Shown piece by piece: positions 1 to 7,627 of a stretch of DNA of 7,627 nt. Source of the stretch: a virus (lineage: Duplodnaviria > Heunggongvirae > Uroviricota > Caudoviricetes); the IMG/VR virus record IMGVR_UViG_2695420382_000010, positions 1 through 7,627 of that record. One strand, written 5' to 3'. The translations under genes were made by a program, and so were the position numbers. The notes under the pieces were generated by a model that saw only the letters and a list, made by a program, of their open reading frames with translations, searched no databases and was not told the DNA's origin. How positions within the stretch are numbered: the stretch's first letter is position 1; every line of letters begins with the position of its first letter.

Positions 1-225
1 CGCATACTTAAAAGCCCTGCTAATCGGACTGATGTCTGATGCCATTCCGAAAGCACACAAGACCGAAGCAATAAACCTCCAGTCCGTTCTGCTTATCTTC
101 GATTCATGACAGCCAATCATCTTTGCCAGACCGCGCTGGGTAAGCGTTGACAGGTTGATGAGTAAATCTGTTTCTGCGCGATCAACATCGCGCTGTGATA
201 GTTTGCTGTAACTTGTTTGTTCCAT
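1..225 (-). CDS. cII: CII-like transcriptional activator, partial (start codon at 225-223; the gene runs off the left edge of the window)
   Basis: Not in the ORF track because it is open at the window edge. Minus-strand translation from ATG (complement of 223-225) gives MEQTSYSKLSQRDVDRAETDLLINLSTLTQRGLAKMIGCHESKISRTDWRFIASVLCAFGM..., 75 codons with no stop. The pattern resembles lambda CII (helix-turn-helix with ...SQISRW..W...) and the gene sits downstream of cro, nutR and a tR1-like hairpin as in lambda. Confidence 0.6.
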   Translation of the reverse strand, partial: MEQTSYSKLSQRDVDRAETDLLINLSTLTQRGLAKMIGCHESKISRTDWRFIASVLCAFGMASDISPISRAFKYA

Positions 226-234
226 TTCTTACTA
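203..234 (+). promoter_or_regulatory. PRE-like CII-dependent promoter: TTGC-N6-TTGT direct repeat flanking the -35 position, then a 12-nt spacer and the -10-like TTACTA; it would drive antisense-to-cro transcription toward cI
   Basis: TTGC at 203-206, 6-nt spacer, TTGT at 213-216, then 12 nt and TTACTA at 229-234. The architecture matches lambda PRE (TTGC-N6-TTGC), and as in lambda it overlaps the cII start codon on the opposite strand. Confidence 0.4.
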
Positions 235-242
235 TTTCCATA

Positions 243-277
243 GGTAAATAATCACTAATACTCATCTTTCGATGAGT
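243..277 (-). terminator. tR1-like hairpin between nutR and cII (7-bp stem, GAAA loop, A/U-rich tail)
   Basis: Minus-strand RNA reads ACUCAUC-GAAA-GAUGAGU (plus 260-277) followed by AUUAGUGAUUAUUUACC. The position matches lambda tR1. The U-tract is imperfect, so this may be a partial or Rho-assisted terminator. Confidence 0.3.
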
Positions 278-289
278 GCTTAATTAGTT

Positions 290-324
290 ACCGCGTTGTC
301 GGCGGTGCAGATTGATAAAGAGCG
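290..324 (-). promoter_or_regulatory. nutR: boxA plus P22-type boxB hairpin
   Basis: On the minus strand, boxA is CGCTCTTTA (plus 316-324) and boxB is ACCGC-CGACAAC-GCGGT (plus 290-306; 5-bp stem, 7-nt loop). It lies immediately downstream of the cro stop, as lambdoid nutR does. The boxB matches the P22 nutR type as I recall it. Confidence 0.6.
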
Positions 325-334
325 GATCCGCTTA

Positions 335-550
335 TTAAGCGGCTTTGTGTTCAGGCGGGAACACGTCATCAAGACTGACTTTTGCGCCTAACTTGTTTAG
401 GCACGCAACAAGAGCACGGCATGTTTTAAGGTCTGGGAAGCGACGACCAGATTCCCAATGTCCGATAGCTCCCTGTGTGCATCCAACTGCCTTAGCAAGT
501 GTTGTTTGAGAGATATTCAGTGACTCTCGATATTTTCGTAGGTTGCTCAT
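335..550 (-). CDS. cro: Cro-like HTH repressor (71 aa)
   Basis: Track ORF 335..721, trimmed to the internal Met at 550 (MSNLRKYRESLNISQTTLAKAVGCTQGAIGHW...) because a GGAGGG Shine-Dalgarno sits 4 nt upstream and the longer form would run through the operator region and the cI start. It has an XRE-type helix-turn-helix and is divergent from cI across an operator region. Confidence 0.85.
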   Translation of the reverse strand: MSNLRKYRESLNISQTTLAKAVGCTQGAIGHWESGRRFPDLKTCRALVACLNKLGAKVSLDDVFPPEHKAA

Positions 551-661
551 ATGCCCTCCATAGTAACCATGAAACAATAATACGATATGTACTTTTGGAA
601 TGCAAACAAAAAATACATCTTGTGCATGGATGGTTTTAGTACAGAGCGTAATAATAAGGAT
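551..661. promoter_or_regulatory. OR-type divergent control region between cro and cI (operators, PR and presumably PRM)
   Basis: 110-bp AT-rich spacer between divergent cro and cI starts. It contains the 19-mer at 577-595 that is shared (17/19) with the PL region, and an ACAAGATG core at 614-625 that recurs in OL at 2918-2925. Confidence 0.6.
577..605 (-). promoter_or_regulatory. PR-like sigma70 promoter for cro (-35 TTGCAT, 17-bp spacer, -10 TATTAT)
   Basis: On the minus strand, TTGCAT is the complement of 600-605, the spacer is 17 bp, and TATTAT is the complement of 577-582. The predicted leader of about 20 nt carries GGAGGG before the cro ATG. Confidence 0.5.
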
Positions 662-1321
662 ATGAAAATGAAATGGTATGAACTGGCTAGATCCAGAATG
701 AAAGAGCTCGGCATAACTCAAGAGAAGTTAGCTGAAGAGCTTGGTATGACGCAGGGTGGAATTGGTCACTGGTTGCGCGGATCTCGTCATCCATCTCTTG
801 ACGAGATTGGTGTGGTGTTTAAATACCTTGGTATTGATAACGTCTCATTCAACCACGACGGTACATTCTCACCTGTTGGCGAATACTCATCTGCCCCCGT
901 TAAAAAACAATATGAGTACCCTGTTTTTTCTCATGTTCAGGCCGGGATGTTCTCGCCTGAGCTTAGAACCTTTACCAAAGGTGATGCGGAGAGATGGGTA
1001 AGCACAACCAAAAAAGCCAGTGATTCTGCATTCTGGCTTGAGGTTGAAGGTAATTCCATGACCGCGCCAACAGGATCCAAGCCCAGCTTTCCTGACGGAA
1101 TGTTAATTCTCGTTGACCCTGAGCAGGCTGTTGAGCCAGGTGATTTCTGCATAGCCAGACTTGGGGGTGATGAGTTTACCTTCAAGAAACTGATCAGGGA
1201 TAGCGGTCAGGTGTTTTTACAACCACTAAACCCACAGTACCCAATGATCCCATGCAATGAGAGTTGTTCCGTTGTGGGGAAAGTTATCGCTAGCCAGTGG
1301 CCTGAAGAGACGTTTGGGTGA
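662..1321 (+). CDS. cI: CI-type prophage repressor (N-terminal HTH domain plus C-terminal S24/LexA-like autocleavage-dimerisation domain), 219 aa
   Basis: Track ORF 587..1321, trimmed to Met 662 (MKMKWYEL...; Met 668 is an alternative) with AAGGA at 656-660. The C-terminal ~130 aa ([14 protein letters not shown]...[10 protein letters not shown]...[12 protein letters not shown]) match the lambda CI C-terminal domain as I recall it. The N-terminal domain is different and carries the helix-turn-helix [22 protein letters not shown]. Confidence 0.9.
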
Positions 1322-1452
1322 TGGATGGAAAAGTACGCCGGGCGTAGAGTGACCAGCAGATTTAAAGCCGACATTCATTGCATTCAATGCAAAAAGAAAC
1401 TTTATGCACTTTAACGATATAATGACTTACGCCATATATAACGGATTGATAT

Positions 1453-2283
1453 ATGAAACTTAATTTTTACGCCTCCTATCAACAAAACGGTAAGGAACGT
1501 TTTCCTATTGATTTGGTGTCAGGCTTATCCGAACAGGTAATCAAAGCAAAAAACAATGCCTTCGAGATTGATGATTACTTTATATTTGCTCATCACATTA
1601 GCAGAGAATGTTATTTAATAACAAAAACATATGACTCAGACTTGGTTAAAAGGGTCAATAAAACCACGCTCTCAGTCGATGAACTCAAAAACGTATTAGG
1701 CAGTGACGAAACGCTAGCGTTTCCATCATTCCTGTTGATCAAAGATGGCGTCATTGGTTATGCCTGCACTCAGCACGGGCCAAGAGTTCGTGAGCTTGAA
1801 ATTTACTTATCTAATAAATTGAACATAACAAAACCATTCAAGCTATGTTTAGAACCTCTGATGAGAGACGTAACTAGGGATGATGCTCTCGACATGGAGT
1901 TCATCGGTAGAACAACCTTAAGAGTTGAGTCTGGATCCAAGCTTTTGTCTCCTTTGCTGAGAGCTGCCGGGATCGAAACCATCGAAGAAGAGCTTCTTGA
2001 AGGTGTGGAAATAACAATAAAACCAAAAAGAATGAGAAATATCAGCAACATGTCCAAGGAGCTGATTCGTAATGCCGATGATTCTCATAGTGACATACAT
2101 CTTAAAGCGAAGGAGTACGCAGCTGATTTGCTAACTGACTACTACCTTTCAAGCAAGGGGCACATCAGTGCCAACATTTACAAATCGACAAATGAAGAAA
2201 TTGCAGAGGAAATGGAAATTTGCTACATAAGAATGAAAAATGTTATAATGAAAAGTTATAAAGATTTTTGTGAAGACGAGTAA
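1453..2283 (+). CDS. rexA: RexA homologue (abortive-infection/exclusion sensor component), 276 aa
   Basis: Same strand as cI and immediately downstream of it. Its length is close to lambda RexA (279 aa) and it shares blocks recalled from lambda RexA: FPSFL, EPLMR..T.DD, FIGRTT, I.IKPK, YLS.KGH.SA, EIAEEM. Confidence 0.85.
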   Translation: MKLNFYASYQQNGKERFPIDLVSGLSEQVIKAKNNAFEIDDYFIFAHHISRECYLITKTYDSDLVKRVNKTTLSVDELKNVLGSDETLAFPSFLLIKDGVIGYACTQHGPRVRELEIYLSNKLNITKPFKLCLEPLMRDVTRDDALDMEFIGRTTLRVESGSKLLSPLLRAAGIETIEEELLEGVEITIKPKRMRNISNMSKELIRNADDSHSDIHLKAKEYAADLLTDYYLSSKGHISANIYKSTNEEIAEEMEICYIRMKNVIMKSYKDFCEDE

Positions 2284-2313
2284 GAGTGAATACCTAAGGG
2301 TAAGGGAGGGCGT

Positions 2314-2751
2314 ATGAGAGAGCACAAAATCGTTCCCGGCGTATTGCTATTCGCTTTACCAATACTTTTCACTATTGTCGTTTACTGCATTTTCCGTAGC
2401 CTTACCTCAGCAATTTCGTTCACCGAGCACAGAGACGCGCTGGGAGCAGCTATATCTTCATATGCAGGGACCACTATCGCAATACTCATTGCCGCGTTGA
2501 CGTTTGTCATAGGCATCAGAGGAAAAAACATGCAAAAAGTAAAGGCATACGGATATATGACATCTGTCATTATTCTGTATGCACTGACCTTTGCGGAGCT
2601 TGGCATTGTTTTTTTTATGGGGTTATTTTTAATGGCCACAAGCAAGCAACCAATTGCTTTGTTGCCATCCTTATCGATCGGCCTATCAGCTTCATCAATG
2701 ATGCATATAAGCATCATACTTTTCCAACTCCTAAAATTCTCAAATAAATAA
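2314..2751 (+). CDS. rexB: RexB homologue (small polytopic inner-membrane protein partner of RexA), 145 aa
   Basis: GGGAGGG Shine-Dalgarno at 2303-2309. The protein is hydrophobic with about four predicted TM segments and shares blocks recalled from lambda RexB: MPGV, H/EHRD.LGA..SSYAGT.IAILIAALTF, YGYMTSV.I.YAL.F.ELG. It is followed directly by an intrinsic terminator. Confidence 0.85.
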   Translation: MREHKIVPGVLLFALPILFTIVVYCIFRSLTSAISFTEHRDALGAAISSYAGTTIAILIAALTFVIGIRGKNMQKVKAYGYMTSVIILYALTFAELGIVFFMGLFLMATSKQPIALLPSLSIGLSASSMMHISIILFQLLKFSNK

Positions 2752-2753
2752 CG

Positions 2754-2780
2754 ACCCGGCCTCAGCGCCGGGTTTTCTTT
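2754..2780 (+). terminator. tIMM-like Rho-independent terminator ending the cI-rexA-rexB operon
   Basis: GC-rich hairpin ACCCGGC (2754-2760), loop CTCAGC, GCCGGGT (2767-2773), followed by the T-tract TTTTCTTT, starting 3 nt after the rexB stop. Confidence 0.8.
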
Positions 2781-2960
2781 GCCTCTCGAACGCCCACCTA
2801 AAACACATAACAAATTGTATTTATTGAAAAATTGATAGATACAACTTGCTAAACAGTGCAATTCTGATCCCTCACCTACCAAACAATGCACCCCTGCAAA
2901 AAATAAATCCATAAAATACAAGATGGTATAAAAAACCAACAACATTTAGAACATTTTGTA

Positions 2961-2989
2961 TTGACTCAATAAAGTACACATCGTACTAT
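2961..2989 (+). promoter_or_regulatory. PL-like sigma70 promoter (-35 TTGACT, 17-bp spacer, -10 TACTAT) with an overlapping operator
   Basis: TTGACT at 2961-2966 and TACTAT at 2984-2989. The downstream CATCAGCAGGACGCA resembles the lambda PL transcript start. The segment 2971-2989 is 17/19 identical to the PR spacer and -10 segment, suggesting OL1. Confidence 0.55.
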
Positions 2990-3035
2990 TTAGCCATCAG
3001 CAGGACGCAGGAAGCCAAACGGAACAGATTGGCAG

Positions 3036-3069
3036 GCTCTTTAACTTCGATGGGGCGCTGACAAAGCGC
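3036..3069 (+). promoter_or_regulatory. nutL: boxA plus P22-type boxB hairpin
   Basis: boxA GCTCTTTAA at 3036-3044 and boxB GCGC-TGACAAA-GCGC at 3055-3069, lying between PL and the N start. The boxB matches the P22 nutL type as I recall it. Confidence 0.7.
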
Positions 3070-3188
3070 AAACAGATATCAAACGAGATGGGTTTGGCGG
3101 TGATGTGAATTGCAGCTGCAACGACAGCAACCAGAAGATCAGCACCTGGCGCATCACCACCAAAGCCATTTCACATGAGGAAAACATC

Positions 3189-3497
3189 ATGACGGTAATC
3201 GTGTACGGAAAATCAACATTTGCAGGAAATGCCAAAACTCGCCGTCATGAGCGGCGCAGAAAGCTGGCTATCGAGCGTGATGCCATCTGCAACATCATCG
3301 ATTCGATCTTCGGCACAGACAGCGAGGAACCTGTTCAGAAAGACACGAGAAAGCGTTTAAGCCTTTCTGAAAAAGCAATATCACTCGGAAGCCTTCGCTG
3401 CAAGAAGGCAGATGAATACAGTGGAAGTATTTGCCTGCCAAACATAGCCATTTACGCGGCAGGCTACAGGAAATCCAAACAGCTGACAGCAAGATGA
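3189..3497 (+). CDS. N: N-type transcription antiterminator, P22 gene 24-like, 102 aa (arginine-rich motif near the N terminus)
   Basis: Track ORF 3105..3497, trimmed to Met 3189 with GAGGA at 3176-3180. The start MTVIVYGKSTFAGNAKTRRHERRRKLAIERD contains the arginine-rich boxB-binding motif and matches the P22 gp24 N terminus as I recall it. It is the first gene after PL and nutL. Confidence 0.85.
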   Translation: MTVIVYGKSTFAGNAKTRRHERRRKLAIERDAICNIIDSIFGTDSEEPVQKDTRKRLSLSEKAISLGSLRCKKADEYSGSICLPNIAIYAAGYRKSKQLTAR

Positions 3498-3555
3498 CTT
3501 GTGTTGGTCGCCAGAAAATGAAATTAGACAGCAAACCACTTATTTGAGGTGAGAT

Positions 3556-4026
3556 ATGACAAAATCATGGAGCGTACCGTTTCCTGAATCAGAAACTGAA
3601 CATGATGGAATGCCTGTTTTCTGGAGATTCCAGGCGACAGTTGAAGAAGATGGGATAAAAATATTCGCACTTCAATATATAGCTTTTCATCAGACAGAGC
3701 ATTATGCATGGTTGGTTCCTGCGCATTGGATTGTTAATTTTAAACCAGCACCAAATCAGTGGTTACAGGAATGGAAACAAAGGAGAAATAGATATGCAAT
3801 TAAGAAAGTAGCAAAAAATGCAGAAAGATCTTTTGCATTCCCAACGAAGAAACTTGCTATTGAAAGTTTATTGCGTCGAAAAAAATACCATTTGGTGAGG
3901 ATCAAACAAGATTTGGCTGTCGTATCAACTCTTGTCGATGGGATGAAGAATATTGATACATCAACACCAGATATTGAATATAACTTTGGACACAACCAAG
4001 AAACAGAAAATTGGGTATTTTATTAG
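3556..4026 (+). CDS. Hypothetical protein, 156 aa; AT-rich orphan gene in the N-cIII slot
   Basis: Track ORF with GAGGTGA Shine-Dalgarno at about 3546-3552. GC content is about 30-37% against about 50-55% in cI and cIII. It has an aromatic-rich N-terminal half and a basic then acidic C-terminal half. I recognise no family. Confidence 0.7.
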   Translation: MTKSWSVPFPESETEHDGMPVFWRFQATVEEDGIKIFALQYIAFHQTEHYAWLVPAHWIVNFKPAPNQWLQEWKQRRNRYAIKKVAKNAERSFAFPTKKLAIESLLRRKKYHLVRIKQDLAVVSTLVDGMKNIDTSTPDIEYNFGHNQETENWVFY

Positions 4027-4101
4027 TACAAATAAGCACTGTGTATCCATTCCAACGAGTGAATACACGGAGCAATTTAAAGCGTAAATAAGGAGCACAC
4101 C

Positions 4102-4266
4102 ATGCAATATGCCATTGCAGGGTGGCCTGTTGCTGGCTGCCCTTCCGAATCTTTACTTGAACGAATCACCCGTAAATTACGTGACGGATGGAAACGCCTT
4201 ATCGACATACTTAATCAGCCAGGAGTCCCAAAGAATGGATCAAACACTTATGGCTATTCAGACTAA
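4102..4266 (+). CDS. cIII: CIII (inhibitor of FtsH-mediated CII degradation), 54 aa
   Basis: Not in the track because it is under 60 aa. ATG at 4102 with AGGAG at 4091-4095. It translates to MQYAIAGWPVAGCPSESLLERITRKLRDGWKRLIDILNQPGVPKNGSNTYGYSD, which matches lambda CIII as I recall it. Confidence 0.8.
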   Translation: MQYAIAGWPVAGCPSESLLERITRKLRDGWKRLIDILNQPGVPKNGSNTYGYSD

Positions 4267-4348
4267 ATTCACTATCGCCACTTTTATTGGCGATGAAAAG
4301 ATGTTTCGTGAGGCCGTCGAAGCCTACAGAAAATGGAGGTCAAAATGA
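4235..4348 (+). CDS. kil: Kil-like small protein (host cell-division inhibitor family), 37 aa
   Basis: This is the C-terminal part of track ORF 4109..4348, with Met at 4235 (MDQTLMAIQTKFTIATFIGDEKMFREAVEAYRKWRSK) preceded by AGGAG at 4221-4225. It overlaps the cIII 3' end out of frame. The N terminus matches lambda Kil as I recall it. Confidence 0.6.
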   Translation: MDQTLMAIQTKFTIATFIGDEKMFREAVEAYRKWRSK

Positions 4349-4533
4349 TTCCGGTAGAGCTGGCGAAAACTCCAGAGTTAAGTCGATTAAAAAGAGAATA
4401 TCACATTGCTGAGGCTCGTTACTGGCGTAAAGCGGGAGATAAATCAAAGAAACAACTTTGTTTATGGCAGGCACAAAGAGAGCGCATGAATGAGCGCGAG
4501 TTTCTTTCCGTCCCATCCGAATTACCATTCTGA
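4345..4533 (+). CDS. Hypothetical small basic protein, 62 aa
   Basis: Track ORF 4333..4533, trimmed to Met 4345 with GGAGG at 4335-4339. Its ATG overlaps the kil stop (ATGA), which suggests translational coupling. The protein is Arg/Lys-rich: MIPVELAKTPELSRLKREYHIAEARYWRK... Confidence 0.5.
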   Translation: MIPVELAKTPELSRLKREYHIAEARYWRKAGDKSKKQLCLWQAQRERMNEREFLSVPSELPF

Positions 4534-4541
4534 GGCAAATT

Positions 4542-5198
4542 ATGGGAACTGCGACATTAATACTCGGTGAATCTGGTACCGGAAAATCAACCAGTTTAAG
4601 AAACTTACCACCAGAAAAAACATTAATCATACAGTGCATAAACAAACCGCTACCATTCCCATCAAGTGATTGGGTTAAAATAAGCAAGGAAAACAATAAC
4701 GGGAACATATACAGAACAGATAATACTGAAAATATTGTAAGGGCACTAATTAATGCTCCGCATGAAATTGTAGTTATTGATGATTATCAGGCTGTGATGG
4801 TTAACGAACTAATGGGTAAATGCAATGAGAGAGGATATGACAAATTTACCTCGATAGGGAAAAACGCATGGGATGTGTTCAGGGCTGCTGGTGAAGGGGC
4901 AGACACTCGGAGAGTTTATATTCTGGCACACACGCAAACTGATGATTTTGGCTATACACGAATGAAAACCGTCGGAAAACTAGTCGATTCGACACTTGTT
5001 CCTGAAGGTTATTTCACTATCGTGTTAAGAACTCACGTACAGAACGGAAAATACTCATTTTCCACCCAGACAAACGGGAGTGATTGTTGTAAAAGTCCGG
5101 TTGGGATGTTTGATAGTCAGTTTATTGATAATGATTTGTACGAAGTAGATAAAAAAATATGCTCTTACTATGGGTTTGAAAAAAATGAGACGTCTTGA
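4542..5198 (+). CDS. P-loop NTPase, RecA-core-like; putative Sak4-type phage recombination ATPase, 218 aa
   Basis: Walker A GESGTGKST at residues 9-17 and a Walker B-like IVVIDD near residue 77. The size and position, where lambdoid phages carry their recombination module, fit Sak4-family single-strand-annealing ATPases. The family assignment is inferred, not confirmed. Confidence 0.7.
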   Translation: MGTATLILGESGTGKSTSLRNLPPEKTLIIQCINKPLPFPSSDWVKISKENNNGNIYRTDNTENIVRALINAPHEIVVIDDYQAVMVNELMGKCNERGYDKFTSIGKNAWDVFRAAGEGADTRRVYILAHTQTDDFGYTRMKTVGKLVDSTLVPEGYFTIVLRTHVQNGKYSFSTQTNGSDCCKSPVGMFDSQFIDNDLYEVDKKICSYYGFEKNETS

Positions 5199-5790
5199 GG
5201 TATCCGGCGAGAGATTTGGCAATTTAGTTGTTATTGGTGATGCAGGAATGCGTGGTACTCAAAGGTTGGTAAACTGTGTGTGTGACTGCGGAGTAGTTTG
5301 TGTTAAACAGCTTGGCAACCTCCGTTCAGGGCACACAAGAAGTTGTGGTTGCTCACGCTCATCTACAACAAAAGCAAGAAAAAACAAACATGGCATGTAT
5401 GGAACGCCAACATACAAGTCATGGTCTTCAATGTTAACAAGATGCTTCAATGAAAGAAATAGTAAATACAAACACTATGGAGGAAGAGGAATAACTGTTT
5501 GTGAACGGTGGCTGGACTTTAAATTATTTTTCGCTGATATGGGAAAAAGACCAGACGGAACTACATTGGGAAGAATTGATAACAATGGTAATTACGAACC
5601 ATCAAATTGCGAATGGCAGAAAAGTATCGAGCAAGCAAGAAATAAGAGTAATACCGTATTATTTAAATTCAATGGAGTGCTGGCAACAATTTCAGAGCAC
5701 TGCGAAAAAACTGGATTAAACCCAAGCACGGTAAGAAGCAGGATTTACACATATCATTGGTCTGTAGACAAGGCCTTATCAAAAGGATAA
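5185..5790 (+). CDS. Cys-rich putative nucleic-acid-binding / homing-endonuclease-like protein, about 201 aa (start ambiguous: 5170 or 5185)
   Basis: Track ORF 5170..5790. It overlaps the end of the upstream ATPase gene. It has an N-terminal Cys cluster (NCVCDCG...SGHTRSCGC), a central YKSW..M..RC.N....Y..YGGRGI.VCERW block and a GRIDNNGNYEPSNCEW block, which I recall from free-standing phage endonuclease-like genes, and a C-terminal HTH-like segment. Confidence 0.65.
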   Translation: MRRLEVSGERFGNLVVIGDAGMRGTQRLVNCVCDCGVVCVKQLGNLRSGHTRSCGCSRSSTTKARKNKHGMYGTPTYKSWSSMLTRCFNERNSKYKHYGGRGITVCERWLDFKLFFADMGKRPDGTTLGRIDNNGNYEPSNCEWQKSIEQARNKSNTVLFKFNGVLATISEHCEKTGLNPSTVRSRIYTYHWSVDKALSKG

Positions 5791-5794
5791 AAGC

Positions 5795-6382
5795 ATGAGC
5801 AACGTGATTTTTACTTATAACGAAGAAGCAGCACTGACCGCAGGGCAAGGTGGTTTTATTAACGAAACTGGCGCTCATATCATTACCATTACTGAAGCAG
5901 AACTAAAGCAATCAGAGAAAGGAGCCAAATTTATTGAGTTTTCTGGAGAATCCGACGACGGACGTAAAATCCAATATCTTAGCGTTTGTGTTCAGAAAAA
6001 TGACGGAACGGAAAACAAGTTTGGTGCAAACGTCGTTCATGCCATGATGGGGTGTGTTGGGATTAAGCAGTTAACGCAACATATGGTTTCCGCCAGTAAA
6101 TTTGTTGCTCCTGAATTTCATGGAAAGAAAATCGGGTTAGTGCTCCAGAAAGTATTAACCACAAACAAAAAGACTGGCGCAGACAGCTACCAGATGGAAA
6201 TACGCATCCCGTTTATTGCACAAACAGGTCAAACCCTTAAAGAAAAGTCGGAAGGCAAGCAACCAGAAACTATCGCCAACATGGTTGCCAGCCTCAAAGA
6301 TAAAGACAATCGCTCTAAAAACGTAAGCCAGAATCATGCAGATGATTATGGTTACAGCCAGAACGATTACCCTCCTTTCTGA
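5795..6382 (+). CDS. Hypothetical protein with an SSB-like acidic/aromatic C-terminal tail (candidate ssDNA-binding partner of the ATPase), 195 aa
   Basis: AAGGA Shine-Dalgarno about 9 nt upstream. The C terminus ...DDYGYSQNDYPPF resembles the SSB / gp2.5 tail (D-rich, ending in P-F). The body has no recognisable canonical SSB OB-fold signature, so the function is a hypothesis. Confidence 0.6.
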   Translation: MSNVIFTYNEEAALTAGQGGFINETGAHIITITEAELKQSEKGAKFIEFSGESDDGRKIQYLSVCVQKNDGTENKFGANVVHAMMGCVGIKQLTQHMVSASKFVAPEFHGKKIGLVLQKVLTTNKKTGADSYQMEIRIPFIAQTGQTLKEKSEGKQPETIANMVASLKDKDNRSKNVSQNHADDYGYSQNDYPPF

Positions 6383-6405
6383 TTACTGAAAATAAGGCTC
6401 CCATT

Positions 6406-6702
6406 ATGCCAGCGCCTCTGTATGGTGCGGATGACCCGCGCAACTGCTCCGGTAGCTCCAAGGCGGAGGTGCTGGATAAATTCAGGAAAAACTACGACCG
6501 GATAATGTCGCTACCGCAGGAAACGAAAGAGGAAAAGGAATTTCGCCATTGTATATGGCTTGCAGAGAAAGAAGAACGCGAGCGAATTTACCAGACATCA
6601 ATCCGACCATTCCGCAAAGCCACATATACCCACTTCCCTGAATATATCGACCCGCGCCTGCGTAATTACCGCTCACGCTATGGCGCTATCAGTAATGACT
6701 GA
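6406..6702 (+). CDS. Hypothetical protein, 98 aa
   Basis: Track ORF with AAGG about 9 nt upstream, co-directional with the operon. The protein is charged and Arg-rich. Its size and position are compatible with a P22 Abc-type anti-RecBCD protein, but the sequence is not recognised. Confidence 0.55.
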   Translation: MPAPLYGADDPRNCSGSSKAEVLDKFRKNYDRIMSLPQETKEEKEFRHCIWLAEKEERERIYQTSIRPFRKATYTHFPEYIDPRLRNYRSRYGAISND

Positions 6703-6712
6703 GGAATTAACA

Positions 6713-7003
6713 ATGAAAACAATGAAGCTAAACATCGACCTCGGCAAATACGTTATTACCGGAACCAAACACGACCTGATTCTTAGCGAAAGAGGAATTA
6801 TCAAAGAAGGTGAGAATGCAGGGAAAGAAACACTAAGTCGTATCGGTTATTACAGCAAGTTTGAGCATCTGGTTAAAGAGTTATGCAACCGTGAAATCCT
6901 GTTATCTCAGGCGCAGACGCTACAGGATATTCAGCAGCATATCGAAACTTTAGGTGTGTCACTTAGCATGGCCGTTGACCAGTTCGTTGAGAGTAAATCA
7001 TGA
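6713..7003 (+). CDS. Hypothetical protein, 96 aa
   Basis: Trimmed from track ORF 6560..7003 to Met 6713, with GAGGA at 6701-6705 straight after the upstream stop. Sequence [22 protein letters not shown]... Confidence 0.55.
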
Positions 7004-7167
7004 GAGGACTTGCATACAATCCCGGCATTCTTCCGGCAGAAATGATTATTCGCCAGCGCGTAAAGCCAATGCCATCGAGAGAGGAATTGCTTAAGAGAAA
7101 GAGTTTCGGTTCTGTTAATGACAACAAATATCTGAATGCGATGTGGCGCAAAGGAGGCAACCAGTGA
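7000..7167 (+). CDS. Hypothetical small protein, 55 aa
   Basis: Not in the track because it is under 60 aa. Its ATG overlaps the upstream stop (ATGA) and its stop overlaps the downstream GTG start (GTGA). It translates to [55 protein letters not shown]. Support is positional only. Confidence 0.35.
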
Positions 7168-7627
7168 GCAAGATTGACTATCAGGCACTGCGTGCCAAGG
7201 CAGAAAAAGCAACTAAAGGAAGCTACATCGTAGGGCATACATCTGTTAATCGGCACGGCAATTTAACAGGAGTTTTTGTTTGTCAAAAATGGAAAGGAGA
7301 ACCCGGTGGTGTGATTGCGGAATGTCATGTTAACTGCCTGGTTGAAACAGATGTTCAGGCTTATGCAAACGCTGAATTTATTGCTGCTTTTAATCCAAAT
7401 GTTGCGCTGGCACTACTGGATGAACGGGAAAGAAACCTGCAATACATCAAAAGCCGCGATCAGGAGAACGAGGAAATTGCGCTAACGGTAGGGAAGTTGC
7501 GTGTTGAGCTGGAAGCAGCAGAGAACAACCTTATTGATAGTGAATGCCATGTTGCTGAACTGGAAGAAGCGCTACGCGATAAGCAGGCGTTACTTGAAGC
7601 CTCAGAAAAGCGCATAGCAGAACTGGA
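7164..7627 (+). CDS. Coiled-coil protein, possibly Ea22-like, 3' partial (GTG start; open to the end of the window)
   Basis: Strong AAGGAGG Shine-Dalgarno at 7151-7157, 6 nt before GTG 7164. The frame stays open for 154 codons to the window end. The C-terminal part visible is heptad-like and rich in Glu/Leu/Ala (...[43 protein letters not shown]). The N terminus [19 protein letters not shown] resembles Ea22-like prophage proteins as I recall them. Confidence 0.5.

Follow-up and report, generated by a model that had tools for sequence, protein, structure and literature searches.

Which genes fill the recombination slot of a lambdoid prophage that lacks Red and Erf there, and what is a cysteine-rich gene doing in their midst? 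These questions are raised by a 7,627-nucleotide stretch of Caudoviricetes DNA (positions 1 to 7,627 of IMG/VR record IMGVR_UViG_2695420382_000010; hereafter the window), which spans the immunity and early-left genes of a lambdoid prophage (HK620/P22-like) in + strand orientation. Three consecutive + strand genes lie in its pL operon, flanked by kil/hkaM and abc2, and encode a P-loop ATPase of 218 amino acids (4542-5198), a cysteine-rich protein of 201 amino acids (5185-5790) and a protein of 195 amino acids (5795-6382) with a distinctive C-terminal tail. An initial annotation, made from the letters alone, had described these same three open reading frames and placed them in the position of Red or Erf. 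Our list of open reading frames agrees with it, and the locus is indeed the slot that holds gam-bet-exo in lambda and arf-erf-abc1-abc2 in P22. We find that the locus is very probably a recombination module of the HK620 type, consisting of Sak4 and its own single-stranded DNA binding protein (SSB), with the cysteine-rich gene as a secondary mobile insert.

An HK620-type module with an extra gene

To judge by their homologues, all three genes are real and conserved rather than chance open reading frames, because the ATPase has 2496 homologues at E<=1e-10, the cysteine-rich protein has 4809 at E<=1e-5 and the 195-residue protein matches an SSB family of PHROG. The features of the locus are as follows.

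4345..4533, + strand: hkaM-like gene, 62 amino acids, first gene of the HK620-type module (PHROG 1723, E 4.5e-33)
4542..5198, + strand: sak4, 218 amino acids, predicted core-only RecA-like ATPase and single-strand annealing protein (PHROG 2872)
5185..5790, + strand: cysteine-rich gene, 201 amino acids, read as a probable free-standing mobile gene, HNH homing endonuclease-like
5795..6382, + strand: ssb, 195 amino acids, HK620-type phage SSB (DUF669-type) with C-terminal NDYPPF (PHROG 743)
6406..6702, + strand: abc2, anti-RecBCD protein 2, last gene of the module (Pfam PF11043, E 7e-59; PHROG 656, E 6e-56)
4674..5792, no strand: mosaic segment by blastn, the 3' four-fifths of sak4 plus the cysteine-rich gene, foreign to the HK620-type backbone
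5174..5782, no strand: approximate extent of the insertion, 609 bp relative to empty-site modules, from the junction alignment of a Logan contig (L079) with two Salmonella prophages (L078 and L077)

The closest relative of this locus is the hkaM-hkaL(sak4)-hkaK(ssb)-hkaJ(abc2) module of phage HK620 (Hutinet et al. 2018, PMC5928155), which has the same pL position and the same gene order. The DNA of hkaM, ssb and abc2 is 93-96% identical in the two, with the hkaM-like gene collinear with hkaM (about 93%) and abc2 collinear with hkaJ; the SSBs are 98% identical and end in the same tail, and the two Sak4 proteins belong to the same PHROG family. By contrast, the Sak4 of the window is a different allele, 51% identical, whose DNA similarity to that of HK620 is gone after the first ~50-130 nucleotides and whose C terminus reads FEKNETS where HK620 has NNVHQIKENAA. 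A second difference is the cysteine-rich gene, which parts sak4 from ssb in the window, whereas the two genes overlap by 4 nucleotides in HK620. A 2010 study by Lopes and colleagues is reportedly also a source for the HK620 recombination module.

Much is known about how the HK620 module works. HK620 Sak4 binds single-stranded DNA (ssDNA) and anneals it in an ATP-dependent manner; HkaK is a genuine SSB, distantly homologous and assigned to Pfam DUF669, and it stimulates Sak4 both in vivo and in vitro, raising recombineering ~14-fold; most of this effect requires the last six residues of the SSB, NDYPPF; and hkaM is an orphan that is dispensable for it (Hutinet et al. 2018, PMC5928155). In the window, Sak4 would likewise bind ssDNA and anneal complementary strands using ATP, the SSB would coat ssDNA and, through NDYPPF, recruit and stimulate Sak4, and Abc2 would redirect RecBCD to yield ssDNA ends. 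We infer this mechanism from the 98% (SSB) and 51% (Sak4) identity to the HK620 proteins, for which it has been demonstrated, and from the predicted fold. The Sak4-SSB system is thus already published and characterised, and the locus is ordinary apart from its insert. Its import for recombination biology is little, as the replacement of Red or Erf by Sak4 and a cognate SSB in lambdoid phages has been published and has been dissected for HK620.

The ATPase is Sak4

The ATPase (MGTATLILGESGTGKSTS...) contains LGESGTGKSTS at residues 8-18 and EIVVIDDY at residues 75-82, in which Walker A (GESGTGKST) occupies residues 9-17 and Walker B (IVVIDD) residues 76-81. PHROG 2872, the 'Sak4-like ssDNA annealing protein' family, covers residues 1-216 of 218 with an E value of 3.7e-82. 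In BLASTP the protein is 51% identical to HK620 HkaL (E 4e-81), with which it shares the N terminus and the Walker motifs. We also modelled its structure with AlphaFold2, using an alignment of 23 homologues from which the HK620 sequence was excluded, and obtained a model with a predicted local distance difference test score (pLDDT) of 78 and a predicted template modelling score (pTM) of 0.80. The top match of this model among Protein Data Bank (PDB) folds in Foldseek was 8rc5, 'RecA-like Sak4 SSAP', where SSAP is a single-strand annealing protein (E 2.5e-6, template modelling score 0.56 over the full length); below it came RadA, RAD51 with its paralogues and RecA, along with FlaH and CobU, whose folds belong to that class too. 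The protein in 8rc5 is a staphylococcal phage Sak4 in complex with SaPI2 Stl, and it resembles that of the window in its core-only RecA fold, but the sequence identity between them is only 14%. A PDB sequence search with the Sak4 profile gave no meaningful match and did not reach RecA, as expected of a remote homologue.

Three features by which a Sak4 is recognised were found here, namely a family profile match, a RecA-like core of 218 residues with Walker A and B motifs, and a neighbouring ssb. The ssb gene lies one gene downstream of sak4 in the window and directly adjacent to it in relatives that lack the insert. Up to 80% of sak4 genes have an adjoining ssb (PMC5928155). By profile and modelled fold, the ATPase is unambiguously a Sak4, and it is predicted to bind and anneal ssDNA in an ATP-dependent manner. 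This bears out the initial annotation, which had read the protein as a RecA-core-like P-loop ATPase of the Sak4 type and had named assignment to a non-RecA P-loop family as the outcome that would speak against it. What we found instead was a RecA-like fold and a Sak4 profile.

The tail protein is the SSB of the module

The 195-residue protein ends in ...HADDYGYSQNDYPPF, of which the final six residues are NDYPPF. It is identical to HK620 HkaK at 191 of 195 residues (98%), including all of the last 15, and falls into PHROG 743, 'single strand DNA binding protein' (E 2.9e-66). Because it is near-identical to an experimentally verified protein, its identity as an SSB can be carried over from HK620. 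The proposal that it is an SSB with a C-terminal interaction tail, cognate to Sak4, thus holds, with NDYPPF intact. Near-identical proteins are named 'DUF669 domain-containing protein' by the NCBI Prokaryotic Genome Annotation Pipeline (PGAP), yet the copy of Pfam-A that we searched gave no family at E<=0.1.

The cysteine-rich gene is a secondary insert

In HK620 and most of the prophages related to it, ssb begins 4 nucleotides before sak4 ends, with no gene between the two. In the window, the cysteine-rich gene most likely starts at the ATG at 5185 (MRRL..., 201 amino acids), with its first 14 nucleotides inside the end of sak4. A start at 5170, from the listed open reading frame 5170..5790, was dropped, as the N termini of homologues and the PGAP calls in identical prophage copies give 5185.

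The gene is sporadic among close relatives. Of 5426 complete E. coli genomes, 303 have the SSB gene type of the window and only three have the segment with the cysteine-rich gene, such that the gene is absent from about 99% of E. coli modules with an HK620-type SSB. We also counted its occurrence among IMG/VR loci encoding this Sak4 subclade (63 loci, 61 of them assessable). A member of the cysteine-rich family lies exactly between sak4 and ssb in ~15 of them, ssb follows sak4 directly in 44 and a different insert is present in two, and carriers and non-carriers are interleaved over the levels of Sak4 similarity. The initial annotation had called for a check of whether the three genes occur together across genomes; the pairing of sak4 with ssb is kept, but the company of the cysteine-rich gene is not, as it joins both in only ~15 of 61 loci. 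Its observation that this gene splits the ATPase and SSB genes stands, and the split is explained by secondary insertion of a mobile gene.

A pair of closely related modules with and without the gene delimits the insertion. The Logan contig L079 and the Salmonella prophages L077 and L078 have kil-hkaM-sak4-ssb-abc2-YfdP-DUF2303 in common, and L079 differs from the two prophages by a clean 609-bp insertion with the cysteine-rich gene, the flanks of which are 94.8% and 95.0% identical in DNA. The insertion replaces the last ~35 nucleotides of sak4 (~11 codons), which encode a tail of the form ...NNxHxIKENAA. As a result, where insert-free relatives have the Sak4 tail ...YYGFNNTHPIKENAA, L079 has ...YYGV and the window has ...YYGFEKNETS. 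The corresponding tail of HK620 Sak4, ...YYGINNVHQIKENAA, is conserved despite only 51% overall identity.

The same site has been used more than once. Between two further loci, L076 and L022, the flanks are 85% identical, and the cysteine-rich genes at the same site are only 40% identical. The family also occurs elsewhere: tblastn found it in 856 phage records, in phages of Staphylococcus, Pseudomonas, Vibrio, Bacillus, Mycobacterium, Enterococcus and others, including such unrelated contexts as the side of the large terminase gene in Ralstonia phage Cimandef and a locus in Enterococcus Schiekvirus. Given its sporadic presence, the clean insert pair, the repeated use of one site and the unrelated contexts, the cysteine-rich gene appears to be a secondary insert outside the ancestral module and is probably a selfish, free-standing mobile gene.

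Three side observations concern the site and its occupants. Insert-free Sak4 proteins that are 51% identical overall share the tail NN(T/V)H(P/Q)IKENAA, and the junction DNA, AATTAAGGAAAACGCxGCATGAG, is conserved as well (compared at window 5150-5198, L078 1260-1321 and L001 3385-3423); the mobile gene may use this conserved sak4 tail junction as its recognition site. An unrelated insert of ~550 bp occupies the junction in L058 (3684-4232; IMG/VR 3300046311_000104) and also in L075, and that of L058 consists of an unrelated open reading frame of ~125 codons followed by a GDGYG-type repeat of GAT/GGC-rich tandem codons, which suggests that the junction may be a hot spot for insertions in general. 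In Pseudomonas phage PfAn1 (L082; PV364321), a family member at 2501-2989, 48% identical over 157 residues, lies between the genes for a PD-(D/E)XK exonuclease and RecT, making this a second, unrelated type of recombination module split by the cysteine-rich family.

A proposed homing account of the insert

The account that we consider most likely from the sequences is one of homing. The cysteine-rich gene, ~609 bp, is probably an insertion at the sak4/ssb junction, read from the same transcript as the module. Its product would bind or cleave DNA site-specifically and belong to an HNH-like (beta-beta-alpha) family, and the gene would spread by 'intronless homing', through the repair of double-strand breaks. 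In the ancestor of the window, an HK620-type prophage would have acquired the gene along with ~0.5 kb of donor sak4, which would fit a co-conversion tract. Sporadic presence at a fixed site among close relatives, by which homing genes are recognised, was found here.

Phage T4 offers a precedent, in that segA adjoins and cleaves uvsX, segG cleaves gene 32 and is located between that gene and gene 59, and mobE is found between nrdA and nrdB (Edgell et al. 2010, PMC2988022). Like these free-standing homing endonuclease genes, the cysteine-rich gene is inserted between genes of DNA metabolism (here those for a RecA-like recombinase and an SSB), is sporadic in close relatives, apparently co-inherits flanking sequence and has its expression driven by the host operon. 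Unlike them, it belongs to neither the GIY-YIG nor the canonical HNH type, having arginine in place of the catalytic histidine; it is carried by a temperate lambdoid prophage, where the T4 genes belong to a T-even phage, and cleavage and homing are putative in its case.

Nature of the cysteine-rich protein

The AlphaFold2 model of the cysteine-rich protein (pLDDT 88.7, pTM 0.51) has an N-terminal beta module with CxCxC...CGC (zinc-ribbon or SH3-like), a central helical and beta-beta-alpha module, and a C-terminal module resembling a helix-turn-helix. The beta-beta-alpha element spans residues 127-153 and reads LGRIDNNGNYEPSNCEW-x5-Q-x2-N. Among 121 family sequences, R130, N141, N153, C87 and Y137 are invariant, and H69, C106 (Cys or His) and C142 are nearly so. 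As read from these sequences, the protein is under strong purifying selection and HNH-like.

PHROG families labelled 'HNH endonuclease' match the protein strongly, with E values down to 3e-64, and in each case the match covers part of a longer profile. The protein had no match in Pfam (HNH included), NCBIfam, PADLOC or PDB sequences, and NCBIfam had no family for any protein of the module. In the reference HNH motif, D74/H75/N96 of I-HmuI, histidine is the general base; the corresponding position in the cysteine-rich family is Arg130, invariant in all 121 members. This sets the family apart from the HNH and His-Me-finger nucleases, both the I-HmuI type (HN(H/N), with D-H at this position) and PacI and Hpy99I. 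Membership of the cysteine-rich family among HNH enzymes is accordingly open to doubt, because of the arginine at the general-base position and the lack of a match to any Pfam HNH model, and a nuclease activity can be put forward only as a putative one. The family is nonetheless routinely auto-annotated 'HNH endonuclease', although it has neither the catalytic histidine nor a curated HNH match.

It is possible, if rather unlikely, that the family represents widespread and so far uncharacterised mobile site-specific DNA enzymes, with a zinc ribbon, an Arg-Asn-Asn beta-beta-alpha core and a helix-turn-helix, which home to sak4/ssb and other junctions of phage DNA-metabolism genes. Such enzymes may use non-canonical catalysis, or may be mobilised without cleavage of their own. 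A weaker variant is that the protein may modulate Sak4/SSB recombination so as to favour its own spread. The clean pairs of modules with and without the insert make the family a tractable case for the question of active homing.

A foreign segment and a hybrid Sak4/SSB pair

Compared with HK620 by blastn, the window matches at 4085-4673 (92.7%) and 5793-6716 (96.4%), with no detectable similarity in 4674-5792. Identity is at least 96% up to ~4585 and decays from ~4590, within the conserved Walker A coding region, and it resumes abruptly in the region of the ssb start codon, which is also conserved between lineages. The foreign block thus consists of ~0.5 kb of donor sak4 and the cysteine-rich gene, and foreign sequence extends on the sak4 side only. 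A one-sided tract of this kind could have been left by co-conversion in double-strand-break repair, and just as well by mosaic recombination of the ordinary lambdoid type at short stretches of conserved sequence. In the comparison of L079 with L078, the flanking sak4 carries no foreign tract.

The 1119-bp foreign segment is rare, being present in one of 50,697 phage records, the Stx2a-converting phage Stx2_16002, and in three of 5426 complete E. coli genomes. A search for a close DNA donor of 4674-5792 returned only these identical copies. The nearest diverged relatives are prophages of the Salmonella type, with 85-87% (Sak4) and 83% (cysteine-rich) protein identity. The closest Salmonella relatives of the Sak4 pair with an SSB ending in DDDIDF, whereas the Sak4 of the window pairs with an SSB ending in NDYPPF. 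This natural hybrid of a divergent Sak4 and an HK620 SSB, found in the prophage of the window, in one Stx2a-converting phage and in a few E. coli strains, provides a ready test of the specificity between NDYPPF and Sak4. Stx2_16002 (LC645439) has the same sak4/cysteine-rich/ssb order at 4501-6917, 99.6% identical over the 1119 bp and 95.7% over 2.4 kb, and ~90 other Shiga toxin (Stx)-converting phages have an insert-free module of the HK620 type.

Alternative explanations

Several points weigh against an HK620-type module with a homing insert. The Pfam AAA_24 score of Sak4 is 24.1 bits, under the cut-off of 27, and the SSB gave nothing meaningful in Pfam (E<=0.1; DUF669 included) or in PDB sequence searches. 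The mechanisms of Sak4 and of the cysteine-rich family are drawn from comparison, for Sak4 with a characterised protein that is only 51% identical. Tail-dependent stimulation is assumed for a hybrid pair in which the SSB is by descent 'foreign' to its Sak4. Ordinary mosaic recombination, at the Walker A coding region and the 5' end of ssb, explains the joints without an endonuclease. Finally, several lineages keep the close overlaps between the genes, as they would be kept for a functional component of the module.

This last point leads to a different view of the cysteine-rich protein, namely that it is a true third component of the module, such as a DNA-end-processing nuclease or a DNA-binding loader that acts with Sak4 and SSB, and is not selfish. 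The order sak4-cysteine-rich-ssb, with overlapping or abutting frames, recurs in divergent metagenomic phages, in which the cysteine-rich proteins are 56-70% identical; the core residues are strongly conserved; a family member lies between exonuclease and RecT in PfAn1; and the module otherwise has no dedicated exonuclease. However, HK620 Sak4 and SSB alone give full stimulation of recombineering, such that the gene is dispensable, and about three-quarters of related loci, like nearly all E. coli modules with this SSB, do without it. Otherwise similar backgrounds (95% identical) are distinguished only by whether they carry it, different cysteine-rich lineages and even an unrelated gene sit at the same junction, and the family occurs in contexts unconnected with recombination. 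We regard a third component as improbable. Far less probable still is the alternative raised by the initial annotation, a two-gene ATPase/nuclease defence pair with a Septu-like logic. A P-loop ATPase does lie beside a protein labelled nuclease, and the prophage carries a defence system elsewhere (RexA/RexB), but the likeness to Septu (PtuA ATPase with PtuB HNH nuclease) goes no further than this superficial arrangement, as the ATPase is a 218-residue Sak4 and not a large ABC/AAA_15-type PtuA. PADLOC, which detected RexA/RexB strongly in the same window as a positive control, gave no significant match for any of the three proteins, the best for the ATPase being a 14-bit P-loop match to mad8 (E 0.0055). 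The conserved partner of the ATPase is SSB rather than the cysteine-rich gene, with which it occurs in a minority of loci, and the locus is an early recombination operon rather than a moron or defence island. We therefore rejected the defence pair on the lack of PADLOC matches and the lack of a conserved pairing.

A more serious contender, though one we still consider unlikely, is that the cysteine-rich protein binds DNA without nuclease activity, as a degenerate homing endonuclease or a regulator, and is carried along passively by mosaic recombination. The invariant arginine in place of the general-base histidine and the absence of a Pfam HNH match would fit this, as would the annotation, in the SEA-PHAGES style, of a relative as 'helix-turn-helix DNA-binding domain protein', the zinc-ribbon and helix-turn-helix modules of the family, which are repeated in longer members, and the position of the mosaic joints at conserved sequences. 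By contrast, a decaying element would not keep more than ten residues invariant in 121 sequences spanning ~40-100% identity, and the repeated independent occupation of the junction, together with the clean presence/absence pairs, suggests active site-directed mobility. In addition, the invariant Asn/Asn of the beta-beta-alpha element and the Cys/His ligands close to it recall zinc-containing HNH enzymes such as PacI. A secondary insert that moves by homing remains our preferred reading of the gene.

The surrounding early-left region

The gene order in the window is cro (- strand), cI, rexA, rexB, N, phrog_1636, cIII, kil, hkaM-like, sak4, the cysteine-rich gene, ssb, abc2 and DUF5405, with cI composed of HTH_3 and Peptidase_S24 domains. 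Directly downstream of cI lies the abortive-infection pair rexA (1453-2283, + strand) and rexB (2314-2751, + strand), for which the E values are 1.4e-45 in Pfam and 3.5e-116 in PADLOC (RexA) and 8e-39 and 3e-54, respectively (RexB). The pair is arranged as in lambda, yet the surrounding cI/cro and N are not those of lambda.

After N, a + strand gene at 3556-4026 encodes a protein of 156 amino acids that belongs to PHROG 1636 (E 2e-111), a family whose function is not known; this protein had no match in Pfam, NCBIfam or PADLOC. In related prophages the same slot holds other genes, either hkaQ or one annotated 'Nmad5 family putative nucleotide modification protein'. We considered whether the PGAP name 'Nmad5 family nucleotide modification protein', used in related prophages, might apply to the cysteine-rich gene and rejected this, as the name belongs to the different gene after N and BLASTP found no similarity between them.

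At the other end, a + strand gene at 6713-7003 encodes a DUF5405 protein of 96 amino acids (Pfam E 2e-5). It matches PHROG 154, labelled 'replication initiation protein', with an E value of 1.6e-32, a label that looks doubtful for a 96-residue early-left protein. HK620 has no DUF5405 gene at the corresponding position.

The whole window (1-7627) is contiguous in no complete E. coli genome, the best place having 59% cover and none of 3104 matching records reaching at least 80%. For this reason the window is, as judged from these genomes, a new mosaic of common lambdoid segments. Another IMG/VR record, UViG 2698536485_000019, encodes Sak4 and cysteine-rich proteins that are 100% identical to those of the window.

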